From NCBI GenBank assembly GCA_028287745.1, contig JAQBPB010000014.1, positions 39,176-103,175 of the forward strand: a stretch of 64,000 bases of DNA, read 5' to 3'. Source of the DNA: Chloroflexota bacterium (GTDB taxonomy: Bacteria; Chloroflexota; Chloroflexia; Chloroheliales; Chloroheliaceae). A program made the position numbers and the translations under genes. The notes under the pieces were generated by a model. That model worked only from the letters and a program-made list of their open reading frames with translations. It made no database searches and was not told the DNA's origin. Below are positions 50,494 to 62,913 of this stretch, in pieces. Position 1 is the stretch's first letter. Each line of letters starts with the position of its first letter.

Positions 50494-53454
50494 TTAAGAA
50501 GCGGCAGCCAGCTTTTTCTCGCGTTTAGGCGCTCTGACAGTTTCTTTTTTAACCGGTTTAATAGGTTCCTGGCCTTTTTTGGCCGCTTCTTTATTGAAGA
50601 TCTGTTTGAGATAATGGCCGGTATAAGAGCCGGGAACCTCGGCTACCTCCTCAGGGATGCCTTCAGCGACAATCATGCCGCCTTTGTTGCCGCCCTCCGG
50701 GCCAATATCCACAATCCAGTCGGCTACCTTGATGATATCCAGGTTATGTTCGATCACCAGCACGGTATTGCCGGTTTCGACCAACCGCTGCATGATATCA
50801 ATCAGTTTGGAAACGTCGTGGGTATGCAACCCGGTGCTGGGTTCGTCCAGCAGGTAGAGAGTCCGGCCGGTCGCCCGTTTGGAAAGTTCCGTGGCGAGCT
50901 TGACCCGCTGGGCTTCCCCACCGGAAAGGGTTGTTGCCGGTTGGCCCATCCGGATATAACCCAGGCCCACATCCACCAGCGTGTCGAGCTTGTTCTTGAT
51001 GGACGGGACATTGGCAAAAAACTCGCTGGCGACTTCAACTGTCATATCCAGGACATCTGAGATGCTCTTGCCCTTATAAAGAATTTCCAGGGCTTCGCGG
51101 TTGTAGCGCTTACCGTGGCAGACTTCGCAGGGTACATAGACATCCGGCAGGAACTGCATTTCGATTTTGATAATACCGTCACCCTGGCAGGCTTCGCAGC
51201 GCCCGCCCTTGACGTTGAAACTGAACCGGCCCGGTTCGTAACCGCGAGTACGCGCGTCCGGCACCTTCGAAAAGATGTCGCGGATTTGAGTAAAGACCCC
51301 GGTGTAGGTAGCCGGGTTCGAGCGTGGGGTCCGGCCAATCGGAGCCTGGTCAATTTCAATGATTTTATCAATATTCTCAATGCCAAGCAGCGTATCATGC
51401 TCGCCCGCTCGCTCTTTGGAACCGTACAGCACGTGGGCGAGCTTCCGGTACAGCGTATCGGTGATTAGAGTACTCTTCCCGCTACCGCTAACGCCGGTTA
51501 CCGCAATAAACTTGCCCAGCGGTACACTCAGGTCAACGTTTTTCAGGTTGTTCTCCCGCGCCCCTTTCAGAAGCAGGTGCTTGCCGTTACCTTTGCGGCG
51601 CTGGGTCGGGATACTGATTTCTCTGGTTCCACTCAGGTACTGGCCGGTAATCGAAGCGGGGTTCTGGGCGACTTCTTCCGGGGTGCCACGGGCGATGACC
51701 TCACCACCGTGTATCCCGGCTCCCGGTCCCATATCAATCAGGTAATCGGCCGAGCGAATCATTTCCTCGTCATGTTCGACCACAATCAGGGTATTGCCCA
51801 GGTTACGAAGTTTGAGCAGGGTGTTAATCAGGCGGGCATTATCGCGCTGGTGGAGGCCGATGCTGGGTTCATCCAGGATATACAACACGCCCATCAGGCT
51901 GCTGCCAATCTGGGTTGCGAGGCGAATGCGCTGGGCTTCACCACCGGCCAGGGTCGCGGCCGAGCGGTCAATCGTCAGGTAGTCCAGCCCTACATCCATC
52001 AAAAAGCCCAGGCGGCTGCGAATTTCTTTCAACACCTGGCGGGCAATCATGACTTCGCGCTCGTTGAGCTTGCCACTGCCGTTTTCCTGCTCGTCATTGA
52101 CCCACAGGCTGTTGAAAAACTCGATTGCCTCGCTAACCGAGCTGCGGACTACCTCCACAATTGATTTGTTGGCGATGGTGACGCTGATAGCTTCCTTTTT
52201 AAGGCGGCTGCCGTTACAGACCGGGCAGGTCTTGCCGATCATGTATTTTTCAATCTCGCTCTTCATATAGTCGCTGCTGGACTCTTTGTAGCGCTTCTTG
52301 AGTTCCGGGATGACACCTTCAAAAGTGGCCTCGGTAGAGGTGTTGCCACGCAGTTTGACCGTTACCAGGTCGCCGTTCAGGCCGTACAGCAGTACGCCCA
52401 GTTGCTCGCCCGTGAAGTCTTTCAGGGGCGTTGCCAGGTCAAAACTGTAGCGGGTACCAACCGCCGAAAGCAGGGCGCTCATATAGGTGCTGTTGTACTG
52501 GCCCAGGCGGTTCCAGGGTAAGACGGCTCCTTCGGCCACGGTCAGGCTGCGGTTAGGAATAACCAGGTCCGGGTCGAAGTCCAGGACCTGGCCCAGGCCG
52601 CTACATTCCGGGCAGGCGCCGTGCGGGGTATTGAACGAAAACGTGCGCGGCTCAATCTCGCCAACGCTGATGCCACAATACACACAGGCGTAATGTTCGG
52701 AAAAGCGCAGTTCTTCGCCATCCACCACCACAACCGTGACGATACCGGTACCCAGTTTAAGGGCGGTTTCAATACTATCGGTCAGGCGGTTTTTTTCGGG
52801 GTAGGTGCCGTCAGGCTCGCGCCGGATGATAATACGGTCCACCACCGCTTCTATGGTATGTTTCTTGTATTTCTCCAGCTCAAATTCTTCGTCCAGGTCG
52901 CGAACAACACCGTTGACCCGTACCCGCACGAAACCTTTCTTGCGCAGGTCTTCAAAAACGCCCTTGTGTTCGCCTTTGCGGTCCTTGATAATTGGGCCGA
53001 GAATCATCAGGCGGCTGCCTTCGGGCAGGTCGGCAACGGTATCGACAATTTGCTGGACCGTCTGGCGCGAAATCTCCCGGCCGCAATTAGGGCAGTGGGG
53101 ATGACCGATCCGGGCGAACAGCAGGCGCAGGTAATCGTAAATTTCGGTAATCGTGCCGACAGTCGAGCGTGGGTTGGTGCTGGTCCCTTTTTGATCAATC
53201 GAAATGGCCGGGGAAAGCCCTTCGATGTAGTCAACATCAGGTTTTTCCATCAAACCCAGGAACTGGCGGGCATAAGCCGAAAGCGACTCAACGTAACGCC
53301 GCTGGCCTTCCGCGTAAATCGTGTCAAAAGCCAGGCTGCTTTTTCCGCTGCCGGACAGACCGGTAATGACTACCAGCTTATCCCTGGGCATTTCGACATC
53401 AATATCTTTTAAATTATGCTCTTTCGCACCGCGCACAATAATCTTGTCGTGCAT
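50494..53454 (-). CDS. uvrA: Excinuclease ABC subunit A
   Basis: [28 protein letters not shown], two zinc fingers, [12 protein letters not shown] and [12 protein letters not shown]. Confidence 0.98.
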
Positions 53455-53819: not shown

Positions 53820-54443
53820 CTATAAAGACCCGCCATCCTGGCTGCTGCCATCCAGCGCTTCATCATTTTCTTCATCCTGTCCACCCTGGTCAGCGGCTTC
53901 TTCCGGCGGCGGTGCGGTCTTGAGAGTAATATGAGTATTGGTGAAAATACACATCTCACCCGCAATCTGGATACCGTTCCGGGCGATTTCAGCGGCGGAA
54001 AGATTGGTATTGCGGAGGAGGGCTTTCGCGGCGGCCAGGGCATAGGTGCTGCCGCTGCCGATAGCGGCTATTTTATCATCCGGTTCTACTACATCACCTT
54101 CACCGGACAGGATTAAAACCTGGTCTTTATCGGCGATAAGCAGTTGGGCTTCCAGGCGGCGGAGCACCCGGTCGCTGCGCCATTCTTTAGCCAGTTCGAC
54201 GGCGGCTTTGCGCAGGTTACCGTGATATTGATCCAGCTGGCCTTCAAACTTTTCGAACAGGGTCAGGGCGTCGGCAACGGCTCCGGCGAACCCGGCCAGC
54301 ACGTGGCCGTCATACAGGGTGCGGATTTTCCGGGCGGTACTCTTCATTATAGTTTCGCCGAAAGTTACCTGCCCATCACCGGCCATGGCAACCTGTCCGT
54401 CCCGGACAACAGCAATAATGGTAGTGGCATGTGGTCTTTGCGT
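53820..54443 (-). CDS. hslV: HslV (ClpQ) threonine protease subunit; true start is upstream of the listed ATG
   Basis: The frame extends upstream of 54386 to [25 protein letters not shown]. Also [22 protein letters not shown] and CIFTN. Confidence 0.93.
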
Positions 54444-54632
54444 AAGGTACCTCCTGGAGTAAATGGACAGTTGGGATGAGAGATTTCATCCACAAATAAG
54501 TAGTTTACACCCTGGCCTACCCAAAAGCAAGTTTGCAGAGTACCCGTCTGATGGTATAATAATTGCATCTTAAAACCAGGAATTTTAGTGTAAACCAGTT
54601 AAATCCAGCGGTGATAGCAGGGACGGCCGATT

Positions 54633-55460
54633 GTGAGTGCAATAGATAAATTTGAGGGAATGGTCGAGGGAGTGGTAGAAGGCTCCATGAGTCGCCTATT
54701 CCGCAGCAAAATAAGCATGGCCGAAATCCAGAAGCGTTTGGAACGAGCTATGGAAGAGCGGCGCGAGGTGGCCGTAGGCAAAGCCTATGTGCCAAACCGC
54801 TACGAGGTATTCTTGCACCCGGCCGATTACCAGCATTTAACTGCCGAAGTTTTACCCAAAATTCAGGCCGAACAAACCCTGACCGAATATATCTTTAACT
54901 ACGCCCACGCCCGTAGCTTTATTTTCGGGGGTGGGAGGCCGCTGGTCTGGCTGAATCCGAACGAATCGGTCAGGCGGCGCAGCCTTATGATTAAAGCTTA
55001 TACGGTCGATCCGAACCAGGCCCGGGTAACCCAGGTCCCGGTGCCAAGCCTGGCCCCGGACCTGAATGCTTCGTCCGAAATACTTAACGGCGGTACAGCG
55101 GTAATGAATATCGGTGCATTACCACTAAATGGCGAACACCGGCCGGTCGGGGCGGTGGCCCGGCCAGAGGCCACCCTGGTGACTTTGGAGTATCCCAACA
55201 ATCATCCGTCAAAGTACATCCGCTTCAACAAAGATGTTACAATCGGGCGCGGCCTGGATAACGATGTTATTTATTCGGATGAAACACGGGTCTCCCGGCA
55301 ACATGCTCGCATCGAGTTTAAATACGGCCAGTTTTTGCTTTTTGACCTTAATAGTACCAACGGTACTCTGGTGAACGGTCGTCCGGTGACGCAAATCGTC
55401 CTGACTCCGGGGGACCGGATATCTCTGGGAGGCTTCGAGGTATTATTCCAGGTCGGTTAG
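54633..55460 (+). CDS. DUF3662 + FHA domain protein (FhaA-like)
   Basis: IQKRLERAME...YVPNRYEVFLHPADY and FHA motifs IGRGLDND, VSRQHA and DLNSTNGT. Confidence 0.9.
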   Translation: MSAIDKFEGMVEGVVEGSMSRLFRSKISMAEIQKRLERAMEERREVAVGKAYVPNRYEVFLHPADYQHLTAEVLPKIQAEQTLTEYIFNYAHARSFIFGGGRPLVWLNPNESVRRRSLMIKAYTVDPNQARVTQVPVPSLAPDLNASSEILNGGTAVMNIGALPLNGEHRPVGAVARPEATLVTLEYPNNHPSKYIRFNKDVTIGRGLDNDVIYSDETRVSRQHARIEFKYGQFLLFDLNSTNGTLVNGRPVTQIVLTPGDRISLGGFEVLFQVG

Positions 55461-55503
55461 TTTGCCGCCTGGGGCCATAAGCAGACAACTTCATGAGGAA
55501 ACA

Positions 55504-56013
55504 TTGACAGATACGATAGGATTCGACCTTTTTATTCTGGTGTTAAGAATTGCTTTTATTTTTCTTCTCTACTTTTTTATCTTTTTAGTGGTCCGCACTA
55601 TAACTAGAGAATTGAACCGGCCCACCCGGCGGCCGAATTACGTTCAACAAGCCTACCCGCCGGAAAGTTTTGTCGCGCCTGCGGCTGCACCCGGTGTCCC
55701 GGCAGGCAGCCCGACCGGCCGGTTGGTGGTGACCGAGGTCGGAAATGCCACTTCGGTCCGGCCAGGTGAAATCTTTCAACTGGGGCCGATTATGCCGATT
55801 GGCCGCCTGCCCGGTAACGCTTTAATCCTGGATGATGACTATGTTTCGAGCGAACACGCTCTTCTGGCCTGGCGAGAGGGCCGCTGGTGGTTGAGTGATG
55901 TCGCCAGCACAAATGGTACTTTTCTAAATGGACAACCGGTCACCCGGCCGGTCCAGGTAAACTGGGGAGATTTGCTCGGTATCGGTGGAGTGCGTTTAAG
56001 GCTGGAGCCCTAA
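55504..56013 (+). CDS. Membrane-anchored FHA domain protein (FhaB-like)
   Basis: N-terminal TM (LVLRIAFIFLLYFF), IGRLPGN, VSSEHA and DVASTNGT. Start is uncertain (TTG 55462 or 55504). Confidence 0.88.
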   Translation: MTDTIGFDLFILVLRIAFIFLLYFFIFLVVRTITRELNRPTRRPNYVQQAYPPESFVAPAAAPGVPAGSPTGRLVVTEVGNATSVRPGEIFQLGPIMPIGRLPGNALILDDDYVSSEHALLAWREGRWWLSDVASTNGTFLNGQPVTRPVQVNWGDLLGIGGVRLRLEP

Positions 56014-59534: not shown

Positions 59535-59997
59535 TAAAGCCAAAACGGTGTTGGAAAAGCATAAAACCGGAAATTACATATTAGAATTTTAATATAAAGG
59601 CGAAAAATCATCCTGTAGGGTGATGTTTTATAAAAAAGGGGGGATATAATTAGCATTAGTGGGATAATCCAATCCGTCTCACTATTTTTGAAAACCAGGT
59701 TAAAGGGGCATAGGTCCTTCCTTACCGGGTAACCGGAAATGGATTATTAATTACTTCCGTCTCTCTTAACCAGGTTACCTCAAATAAATTTATCCACTTC
59801 ACTCAATATCACAAACAAAGCGGCTGGCCTAACCCACTAGCCGCTTATTTTTTATATTTATCTTGATTATCAACTCCTCATAAAGTAAAATAGGCAGGAA
59901 AATAACCGGACAAATTTTCGGCTAATTTTATTTCAAGATTATTTGCCAGCGCCAGCCAGATTGTCTGGCGAACTATTAGAGCCGGTTGGGAGAAAAA

Positions 59998-62913
59998 ATG
60001 GCTGAGGACGAGAAGCAAAAATCAAAGACCAGGAAACGTGTAGTCCTTCAAGAAGAAAATACTACCCCTAAAGCTAGCACTGCAAAGCCCAGGAAGCGAA
60101 AGCCTGTCAAAAATTTGGAAGAACAGCAAACTGAAAATAAACCGTTTGAAGCTGAAAACGGGCCGGAAACCGCCGAGAGCCTGGTAGACCTGCCTGATAT
60201 GCTAAAACAATTGCTTGAGCACCAGGGCCAGGCGGTTGAAAGTTCTAAACCTGCCAGCCCGCGCCGTTCCCGCAAGACCCCCGGCCGTAAAGCGGCCCCG
60301 GTGTCGGATGCGGAAGCGCCTGAAAGCGAAATGCCCGAAATCCCTTCGATTTTGCCTATCCTCCCTTTGAAAGATACGGTTGTTTATCCTATGACCGTTT
60401 TCCCGCTGGCTGTCGGTCAGGAAAGGTCTATCCGGTTAATCGAGGAAATAATGCAAGGCGATGGGCCCCGGCTGGTTGGCCTGGTAGCTCAGAAGAATTT
60501 AGAAGTCGAACAGGCCGGGATCGGTGATACCTACACCATCGGAACCGTGGCCACCGTCCATAAACTACTTAAAGTACCGGACGGCACTATCCGGCTGGCT
60601 GTACAGGGGCTTGAAAAAATCAGGATTGTAGAATTTGTCGAAACCGAGCCTTACCTGAAAGCCCGGGTTGAAGTCGTGCAAGATGAGGACAATAAAAGCG
60701 TTGAAGTTGAAGCTCTCATGCGGAATTCAATTTCACTTTTCCAGCGGCTGGTATCCCTGGTACCGCAGATTCCCGATGAACTGCTTATAACCGCCATCAA
60801 TGTCGAGCAGCCGCGCCAGTTGGCCTACCTGATTGCCACCAGCGTCCGGATGGAACTGGAACAGCGCCAGGAAATCCTGGAAACTGCCAGTATCAAGACC
60901 AAACTGGAAATGCTGAATGCTTTCCTGACCAAAGAACTGGAAGTGCTGGAACTCGGCCGCAAGATACAAAGCCAGGTCCAGGACGAACTGGGTAAGACCC
61001 AGCGCGAGTACTTCTTGCGCGAGCAGATTAAAGCTATTCAGAAAGAACTGGGCGAGGACGACCCGCAGTCCGCCGAAATTAATCAGCTTCGCGAGCTGAT
61101 TCTAAAGTCCAAAATGCCGACCGAAGCCCGGCGCGAGGCCGAACGCGAGTTGGACCGGCTCTCTAAGCTGCCGCCCGCCGCTGCCGAATACGGTGTAATC
61201 AAAACTTACCTGGACTGGTTAACCACCTTGCCCTGGGACAAAAGCACCGAAGCGCCCCTGGACATTTTGCTGGCGAAAAAGGTCCTTGACGAAGATCACT
61301 ACGACCTGGAGAAAATTAAAGAGCGCTTGCTGGAATACCTTTCGGTCCGCAAGTTGCGCAATGACCGCCATCCTCAGCCGCCTAAAGCCGAAGCAAAGGA
61401 AGCGGCTACCACCGCTGTCGCTGACGGTTCGGCGGTCGTGGACGGCCTTGAAATCTCTTCTACTACCCTGAATGACGGGCCGCTGACTTACGAAGATGTC
61501 CATAACTTCAGCGGGCCGCGCGAACCAATCTTGTGCCTGGTCGGACCGCCAGGTGTGGGTAAAACCAGCCTCGGACAGAGTATTGCCCGGGCGCTGGGCC
61601 GCAAGTTCACCCGCATGTCGCTAGGCGGTATGCGCGATGAGGCCGAAATCCGGGGCCACCGCCGGACCTATATCGGGGCGCTGCCGGGCCGGATTATCCA
61701 GGCCATCCGCCGGGCCGAGTCGAATGACCCGGTCTTTATGCTCGACGAAGTAGATAAAATCGGCATGGACTACCGGGGCGACCCCAGTTCGGCTTTGCTG
61801 GAAGTGCTGGACCCGGAGCAAAACCAGGACTTCCGCGACCACTACCTGGATGTGCCGTTTGACCTGTCCAAGGTAATGTTTATCGCTACGGCTAACCTGC
61901 TGGACCCGATTCCGGCTCCGCTGCGCGACCGTATGGAAATTCTACAACTGGCCGGTTATACCGAGGAAGAAAAGGTCCATATCGCTTTTCAACACCTCGT
62001 GCCGAAGCAGTTGCGGGCCCATGCCCTTACGGAAGAAGATGCCGAAATTGAACACATGGCGATGCGCCGGGTTATTCGCGACTACACCCGGGAAGCAGGT
62101 GTGCGCAGCCTGGAACGGGAAATCGCGACAGTCTTCCGCAAGATTGCCCGGCGGGTGGCTGAAGGCAAGACCGGCAAAGTCGTTGTAACTCCCGACAACC
62201 TGAACGAGTACCTGGGCAAGCAGCGTTACTTCTCGGATGCCGCCGAACGCACTCAGCAGCCGGGTGTCGCTACCGGTCTGGCCTGGACCGAGGTGGGCGG
62301 CGATATTCTCTTCATAGAAGCCACCCGCATGCCTGGTAACAAGCAGTTGATTATCACCGGGCAGTTGGGCGATGTGATGAAGGAATCGGCCCAGGCGGCC
62401 CTTTCCCTGGTCCGTTCGAAAGCCAAAGACCTGGGAATAGAACCGGAATTCTATGAGAAAAGCGACCTGCACATTCATATTCCGGCCGGGGCTATTCCCA
62501 AGGATGGGCCTAGCGCCGGTATCACCCTGACCACCGCCCTGGCTTCGCTTTTGACCGGCCGCCCGGTCCACGGCGATGTAGCGATGACCGGTGAGATTAC
62601 CCTGCGCGGTAAGGTGTTGCCGATTGGCGGCCTGAAAGAGAAGATTCTGGCGGCCCACCGGGCCGGTATCAAGCGAATCATTCTGCCCAGGCTGAATGCG
62701 CGCGACCTGGACGACTTGCCAGAAGAGTTGCGGGACGAGTTGGAGTTCTTCCTGGTTGATAATATTGACGAGGTGCTGGAAGTAGCCCTGGAAAAGGCCG
62801 GACAACCCCACGTGGGAGCCGTTATCGAGCCTCCCCAGAACGCCCACCTGGTAAATAATGGTGCCAGCAAGCCAAAGGCCCCACGCAAGTCGGCTAAAAA
62901 GACCACAGAGTAA
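59998..62913 (+). CDS. lon: Lon protease (LonA)
   Basis: LON N domain, [27 protein letters not shown] (catalytic Ser) and PIGGLKEK. Start placed at ATG 59998. Confidence 0.97.

Follow-up and report, generated by a model that had tools for sequence, protein, structure and literature searches.

Bacterial genes start at AUG, GUG or UUG, and rarely at CUG or AUU/AUC/AUA; translation table 11 does not list ACG as a start codon. In E. coli and relatives, infC (which encodes IF3) and pcnB have an AUU start codon, and this weak codon is decoded by the ordinary initiator tRNA and proofread by IF3, which lets expression be tuned. ACG starts occur in eukaryotic cells and in eukaryotic viruses, where AAV VP2 and Sendai C′ are made from them with low or regulated output, and ACG-to-AUG editing of start codons is a familiar feature of plastids and plant mitochondria. 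The protease HslV works with the HslU ATPase, which is usually encoded directly downstream. The accepted bacterial start codons all have U at the second position (PMC6868393). In E. coli reporters, ACG falls into a class of codons with initiation measured at 0.1–1% of that of AUG, mostly with Met at the N terminus (bioRxiv 10.1101/063800); and in S. aureus HslV an N-terminal extension is cleaved off, exposing the catalytic Thr (PMC7468587). In our full-text search of a literature library, the ACG starts described were eukaryotic, viral, organellar or engineered, and none was a natural one belonging to a gene on a bacterial chromosome.

We analyzed a 64-kb stretch of Chloroflexota DNA (all of it hereafter called the window) and compared its hslV gene with those of relatives. 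The sequence comparisons make it very probable that this gene is translated from the ACG at 54443–54441 as a near-cognate start, with the ribosome-binding site directing initiation and selection preserving the codon; decoding by fMet-tRNA, cleavage of the propeptide and a regulatory purpose would complete this reading. The features to which we refer are as follows.

53820–54443, minus strand: hslV coding sequence of 207 codons plus the TAG stop (53820–53822), read from ACG and identified by translation, NCBIfam and Pfam
54441–54443, minus strand: ACG, the proposed initiation codon, the sole invariant triplet across the start region of 16 relatives
54450–54455, minus strand: Shine-Dalgarno sequence AGGAGG, 6 nt 5′ of ACG
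54444–54445, minus strand: TT at positions −2 and −1, immediately 5′ of ACG
54426–54440, minus strand: propeptide codons Q-R-P-H-A, from the start codon to the catalytic Thr
54423–54425, minus strand: Thr1 codon ACT, for the nucleophile at the N terminus of the mature protease, aligned with residue 1 of 1m4y and 1g3i
54486–54488, minus strand: in-frame TGA that closes the frame upstream, from translation
54384–54386, minus strand: ATG that comes first in frame and encodes Met20 of the mature protein, used as the start by gene callers in relatives
54502–54530, minus strand: putative sigma-70-type hslV promoter, TTGCTT (54530–54525), 17 nt, TAAACT (54507–54502)
53823–53918, minus strand: clade-specific acidic C-terminal tail, residues 176–207, past the part matched by Pfam, NCBIfam and PDB

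On the minus strand, the frame upstream of the proposed start reads TGA AAT CTC TCA TCC CAA CTG TCC ATT TAC TCC AGG AGG TAC CTT ACG (TGA at 54488–54486, ACG at 54443–54441) and continues CAA AGA CCA CAT GCC before ACT (54425–54423) ACC ATT; it is open from this TGA to the TAG at 53822–53820, and the protein of 207 residues read from ACG begins TQRPHA/TT, the slash standing before Thr1. The initial annotation had held that no canonical start precedes the catalytic Thr, and indeed no ATG, GTG or TTG lies in frame between the TGA (54488–54486) and the Thr1 codon (54425–54423); its coordinates for the hslV frame, AGGAGG, ACG, the Thr codon and the first ATG were all correct. It had also placed a perfect AGGAGG (54455–54450) 6 nt before ACG, which agrees with the 6-nt spacer TACCTT between AGGAGG and ACG (54443–54441) and with a spacing of 6–8 nt in all 17 clade members that carry ACG.

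The product belongs to the HslV (ClpQ) peptidases (MEROPS T1B) by both its equivalog models and its catalytic residues: it scores 272.9 bits against a cutoff of 137 for NF003964 (NCBIfam HslV equivalog; E 1e-81) and 263.1 bits against a cutoff of 157.75 for TIGR03692 (NCBIfam HslV equivalog); it matches the Pfam Proteasome family PF00227; its best PDB matches are all HslV (E 1e-63 to 1e-66); and Thr1, Asp17 and Lys33, counted from Thr1 in the translation, are all intact. From its Thr-Thr onward, the product aligns with residue 1 of the mature HslV structures 1m4y and 1g3i. The codon used for Thr1 itself differs among relatives (ACT, ACC, ACA and ACG).

This alignment bears directly on where translation can begin. 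A start at the first in-frame ATG (54386) or later would yield a shortened, non-proteolytic protein, since that ATG is Met20 of the mature protein and its use would, as the initial annotation pointed out, remove Thr1. Gene callers choose this ATG in relatives, and Met20 is conserved; however, a Met at that place is an internal residue in all HslVs, no Shine-Dalgarno site lies 5′ of 54386, and the 19 codons from Thr1 to the ATG align with residues 1–19 of mature HslV structures. These same 19 codons are under strong purifying selection, with pN of 0.02–0.14 vs. pS of 0.47–0.94 between relatives, and we therefore take the stretch 5′ of the first ATG to be coding. Such a shortened protein is accordingly hardly credible as the product of the gene, and translation from the upstream ACG is the reading that we pursue.

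The six codons that precede Thr1 when the protein is read from ACG are what would be expected of a propeptide. Outgroup HslVs have 3–10 codons 5′ of Thr1 (106 starts), and the six-codon hslV leader is thus ordinary for a Gram-positive-type HslV; the QRPHA motif resembles the HATT of B. subtilis CodW (PDB 1yyf). The short propeptide (M)QRPHA/TT predicted in the initial annotation is therefore in line both with the outgroup proteins and with the cleaved extension of S. aureus HslV (PMC7468587), and by analogy with the latter a free N-terminal Thr would arise through propeptide cleavage. B. subtilis CodW (PDB 1yyf and 2z3a) and S. aureus HslV (PDB 6kr1; PMC7468587) belong to the same family and likewise have a short extension ending in H-A before Thr-Thr; but the CodW and S. 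aureus genes start at ATG and stand directly before hslU, whereas the clade with ACG has no hslU at the loci compared and carries an acidic tail of 30 residues.

A canonical start could also have been lost from view through a sequencing or assembly error, or lost in fact through a private ATG-to-ACG mutation, possibly of a dying gene, and both error and private mutation had been considered when the ACG was first noticed. One C-to-T transition turns ACG into ATG, and most public gene calls start hslV later, which would fit such an accident. Against it, Logan contigs from soil-metagenome runs X1, X2, X6, X8 and X9, which come from five studies, contain the start region without differences, and one RNA contig reads ACG as well; inspection of the base at 54442, which the initial annotation had proposed for reads, thus returns ACG and not ATG in these independent assemblies. 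Strain variation, sought in other soil runs, was represented only by identical or unrelated pieces. ACG is moreover present in 16 other distinct relatives, down to ~75% protein identity, and dN/dS of 0.03–0.085 together with the intact Thr1, Asp17 and Lys33 does not fit a dying gene. We consider an error or a private mutation to have almost no probability.

Comparison of the start codon in related genomes, also proposed at the outset, favors a conserved ACG rather than an ATG. DNA of 20 distinct clade members was taken from genome, metagenome and assembly collections, and 17 of them have a Shine-Dalgarno sequence (AGGAG- or GGAG-type) followed after 6–8 nt by an in-frame ACG, which favors ACG initiation among the options first raised; with relatives keeping ACG in this proportion (17/20) and ATG found only in L175, a private mutation of the window sequence does not account for it. 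The canonical starts that replace ACG do so at exactly the same codon, with TTG in L161, which is sister to L002 in the tree, and ATG in L175; L163 is without ACG. In several members the alternatives are as restricted as in the window or more so: a canonical in-frame start before the essential residues is also absent in L001, L003, L004, L084, L170, L171 and L176, and L001, L170 and L176 have an in-frame stop just 4–5 codons 5′ of ACG, so that nothing further upstream can be the start. In L081, L173 and L162, by contrast, there is an in-frame ATG between ACG and Thr1 that has no Shine-Dalgarno site but could serve instead of, or besides, ACG.

Two members have start regions that call for separate comment. 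In L163, the public annotation (L163:3001, GCA_013390565.1) starts hslV at ATA (MQATT...); a TTG that lies eight codons upstream of this ATA and has GCGGAG 9 nt before it seems the more plausible start. In L177 (ERZ25039523 contig_92671, clade member P0035) several genes are split (tRNA_Me_trans, BPD_transp_1), which suggests uncorrected long-read indels; because its genes are broken on a contig of long-read type, we regard its start region, which offers canonical options, as unreliable and uninformative.

In a maximum-likelihood tree all 20 members form one HslV clade (support 100/99, stem length 0.72), and canonical starts are present in 17 of the 17 outgroups of that tree. None of 138 distinct outgroup hslV loci combines a Shine-Dalgarno site and ACG with lack of a canonical start; three of the 138 have a Shine-Dalgarno site and an in-frame ACG, each with an ATG one or two codons downstream. 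The start codons of 106 outgroup genes are ATG (83), TTG (14) and GTG (9). In this group of uncultured soil Chloroflexota, ACG is probably ancestral to a distinct HslV clade. No ATG, GTG or TTG occurs in the 20 codons 5′ of the Thr-Thr of a long-branch outgroup hslV, L053 (CADDZI010000039.1, near 2889; ...PPRRFHA/TT).

The divergence within the clade is large enough for conservation of a single codon to carry weight. Synonymous divergence between the window and clade members ranges from dS of ~0.9 to saturation, with dN/dS of 0.03–0.085. Among members that align without gaps, ACG occupies the start position in 13 of 13, vs. 8 of 52 at four other columns that are Thr throughout. Within the first 40 codons, third positions are invariant only at codons 1, 2, 20 (Met) and 25, and in the alignment of 16 start regions ACG is the only fully invariant block. 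At such divergence ATG must have arisen repeatedly, yet of the members sampled only L175 has it, and ACG therefore appears to be preferred and not merely tolerated. That ACG is conserved beyond neutral expectation and kept by selection is the best explanation of these patterns.

Other codons in the leader were weighed as starts. Translation might begin at CTG (54470–54468) or ATT (54464–54462), both of them codons that table 11 accepts, or at one of the ATGs that are present in other frames (54489, 54430) and reach the hslV frame by frameshifting. Neither the CTG nor the ATT, however, is preceded by a Shine-Dalgarno site, and neither is conserved; the corresponding positions in L001, L170 and L176 are followed by in-frame stops; the out-of-frame ATGs are missing from most relatives, and the ATG at 54430 is a by-product of the CAT-GCC codon pair. 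The probability that any of these is the start is accordingly very slight, and ACG remains the codon to be explained. An ATT codon lies immediately 5′ of ACG in L082 and L176.

Three further arrangements of the leader were considered and discarded. Upstream open reading frames from ATG 54489 (37 codons, in another frame) and from ATG 54568 (67 aa) are missing from relatives. A prfB-like frameshift site, which AGGAGG-TAC-CTT resembles, was set aside, as CTT is already in the hslV frame and no start precedes it. Translational coupling was dismissed because there is no upstream gene on the same strand, the neighbor being a divergent FHA gene, and because hslV has its own conserved putative promoter.

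The transcript itself is represented by one metatranscriptome contig, from run X23, the only run among the RNA data that covers the hslV start; it spans 54354–54494 without differences, so that the RNA consensus reads ACG, although this is a single contig of depth ~3.8x, in which minority variants would be lost and to which carried-over DNA could have contributed. Its end at 54494 lies ~7 nt past the TTGCTT-17-TAAACT promoter, which suggests a leader of ~50 nt with its putative transcription start there. Both promoter hexamers are kept in the six closest relatives, with a spacer that varies; the promoter has 8 of 12 consensus positions and is therefore missed by a consensus scan.

The RNA sequence bears on the possibility that C-to-U editing turns ACG into AUG in the mRNA, which would then be read normally. 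A specific editing site would be in keeping with the strict conservation of ACG, and start-codon editing of this type is established in plastids and plant mitochondria; however, whereas plant organelle ACG starts use C-to-U editing, the one RNA contig of hslV is unedited, being identical to the DNA across the site, an observation that counts weakly given its low depth, its consensus nature and possible DNA carry-over. In addition, no conserved structure or sequence surrounds the site besides the ribosome-binding site, and we know of no ACG-to-AUG editing system in bacteria. Editing is, in our judgement, very unlikely.

Alternatively, a dedicated device could read ACG, for example an initiator-like tRNA whose anticodon is CGU, or else an IF3 or ribosome so altered as to accept ACG efficiently. 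There is precedent for the former, since engineered E. coli initiator tRNAs with changed anticodons initiate at matching codons, and one paper reportedly describes engineered initiator tRNAs that start at non-AUG codons. But ACG use in the window is gene-specific: of its ~50 long open reading frames, hslV is the one in which a canonical start is farthest away (a gap of 33 codons) and the only one with a Shine-Dalgarno site and ACG without a canonical alternative, and no further ACG-start candidate was found among the ~50. Occurrence in only one of ~50 window genes speaks against a general device; moreover, the only tRNA in the window is a tRNA-Arg, and the conserved U at −1, described below, fits the normal initiator tRNA. 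Such a device is improbable, if a shade less so than editing, and a dedicated ACG decoder of either type, special tRNA or RNA editing, is improbable even when both are considered jointly. As ACG use is gene-specific in the window, we favor a gene-specific, selected weak start.

The immediate context of the ACG is consistent with its being read by the ordinary machinery. T occupies position −1 in 15 of 16 distinct members with ACG, vs. 35% in 106 outgroup hslV starts (binomial P 1.5e-6, a value not corrected for phylogeny). Quadruplet pairing of U(−1) with A37 of the initiator tRNA has been shown at scale in E. coli (PMC10018350), and the conserved U at −1 would fit the expectation for a normal initiator tRNA that copes with a middle-base mismatch. 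The start region is unstructured: no significant fold was found (z +1.26), the 16 start-region sequences yield no consensus structure, and the hslV start region has no match in Rfam. The absence of all three led us to reject an RNA switch or thermosensor, and the leader resembles a simple ribosome-binding site, open and strong, that is directed at ACG.

We propose that the unstructured, strong AGGAGG would set the 30S subunit on the ACG 6 nt downstream, where ordinary initiator fMet-tRNA would read ACG as a near-cognate codon with a middle-base mismatch; the conserved U at −1 would pair with A37 of the initiator tRNA and probably aid decoding of ACG. The product, (f)Met-QRPHA-TT..., would be a precursor from which the short propeptide is removed so that the catalytic Thr1 is exposed. 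Because the propeptide would be removed, the identity of the first residue would be irrelevant to the enzyme. The likely reason for such a start is that, being weak and sensitive to IF3 proofreading, it could hold HslV synthesis low or tie it to the state of the translation machinery; we infer low or regulated HslV expression to be the purpose of the ACG.

A close parallel is with infC and pcnB: as in hslV, a weak non-canonical start has been retained in different species for one particular gene, with an ordinary ribosome-binding site in front of it. The hslV ACG is a gene-specific near-cognate start like the infC AUU, but at a codon that is not accepted as a bacterial start: unlike the AUU of infC and pcnB, it breaks the conserved U at the second position. 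Unlike infC, too, the protease gene hslV has no evident autoregulatory logic. The E. coli reporter of Hecht et al. (bioRxiv 10.1101/063800) resembles hslV in having ACG behind a Shine-Dalgarno site; that reporter, however, is an artificial construct, whereas the ACG of hslV occurs naturally, is conserved and is the sole start that its chromosomal gene has. The ACG starts of eukaryotes and their viruses rely on scanning and Kozak context, in contrast to the bacterial Shine-Dalgarno site of hslV.

The clade also departs from other HslV systems in its partner and in its C terminus. We found no HslU-like gene in the 64-kb window nor in 18 other clade loci, whereas hslU lies beside hslV in 132 of 152 other loci, including 12 of 12 outgroups of Chloroflexota type. 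Clade members differ in what adjoins hslV: uvrA, a PBP gene, clpS or a sigma factor gene. All clade members have an acidic C-terminal tail of ~20–35 residues, closed by the motif L-x-G-S-S-x-[DE]-G-G-x-[LI]; no HslV model or structure extends over this tail, the Pfam, NCBIfam and PDB match ending near residue 175, and the tail could act as a docking or self-activating element.

A bolder version of our proposal is that ACG is the fidelity-gated start of an orphan HslV, whose tail might dock or activate it without HslU and whose output would be near zero until IF3 proofreading relaxes. If so, HslV would rise, for example, in stressed cells, or when ribosomes are immature or IF3 runs short, and a clean-up protease would be made exactly when translation turns sloppy. 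We regard this as a speculative extension, unlikely as it stands although by no means negligible.

Use of ACG has consequences for annotation. Of the 42 closest database proteins (≥71% identity; P0001–P0042), 31 are called from an internal MAGDGQ or later and are without Thr1, and the database entry of the window protein itself starts at MKSTARK and has 175 aa. The 31 entries lack the catalytic Thr because gene finders and NCBI table 11 disallow ACG starts; shortened in this way, HslV entries would be misread as inactive proteins or pseudogenes. Conservation of a natural ACG start in several species would add to the accepted set of bacterial starts, and the hslV gene with ACG would offer a clean natural system in which the initiator tRNA, the −1 base and IF3 are set against a middle-base mismatch.

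As to the surroundings of the gene, an order of FhaA-like gene and second FHA gene (divergent), hslV and uvrA is common to the window, L161 and L164–L168; in the window the FHA genes lie at 54633–56013 on the plus strand and uvrA at 50494–53454 on the minus strand, and a Lon protease gene is located at 59986–62910. The region 54502–54560 contains two back-to-back divergent promoters, conserved in the six closest relatives: a plus-strand promoter, TTTGCA-17-TATAAT (with TG), serves the FhaA-like FHA gene at 54633, and the putative minus-strand promoter, TTGCTT-17-TAAACT, would serve hslV.
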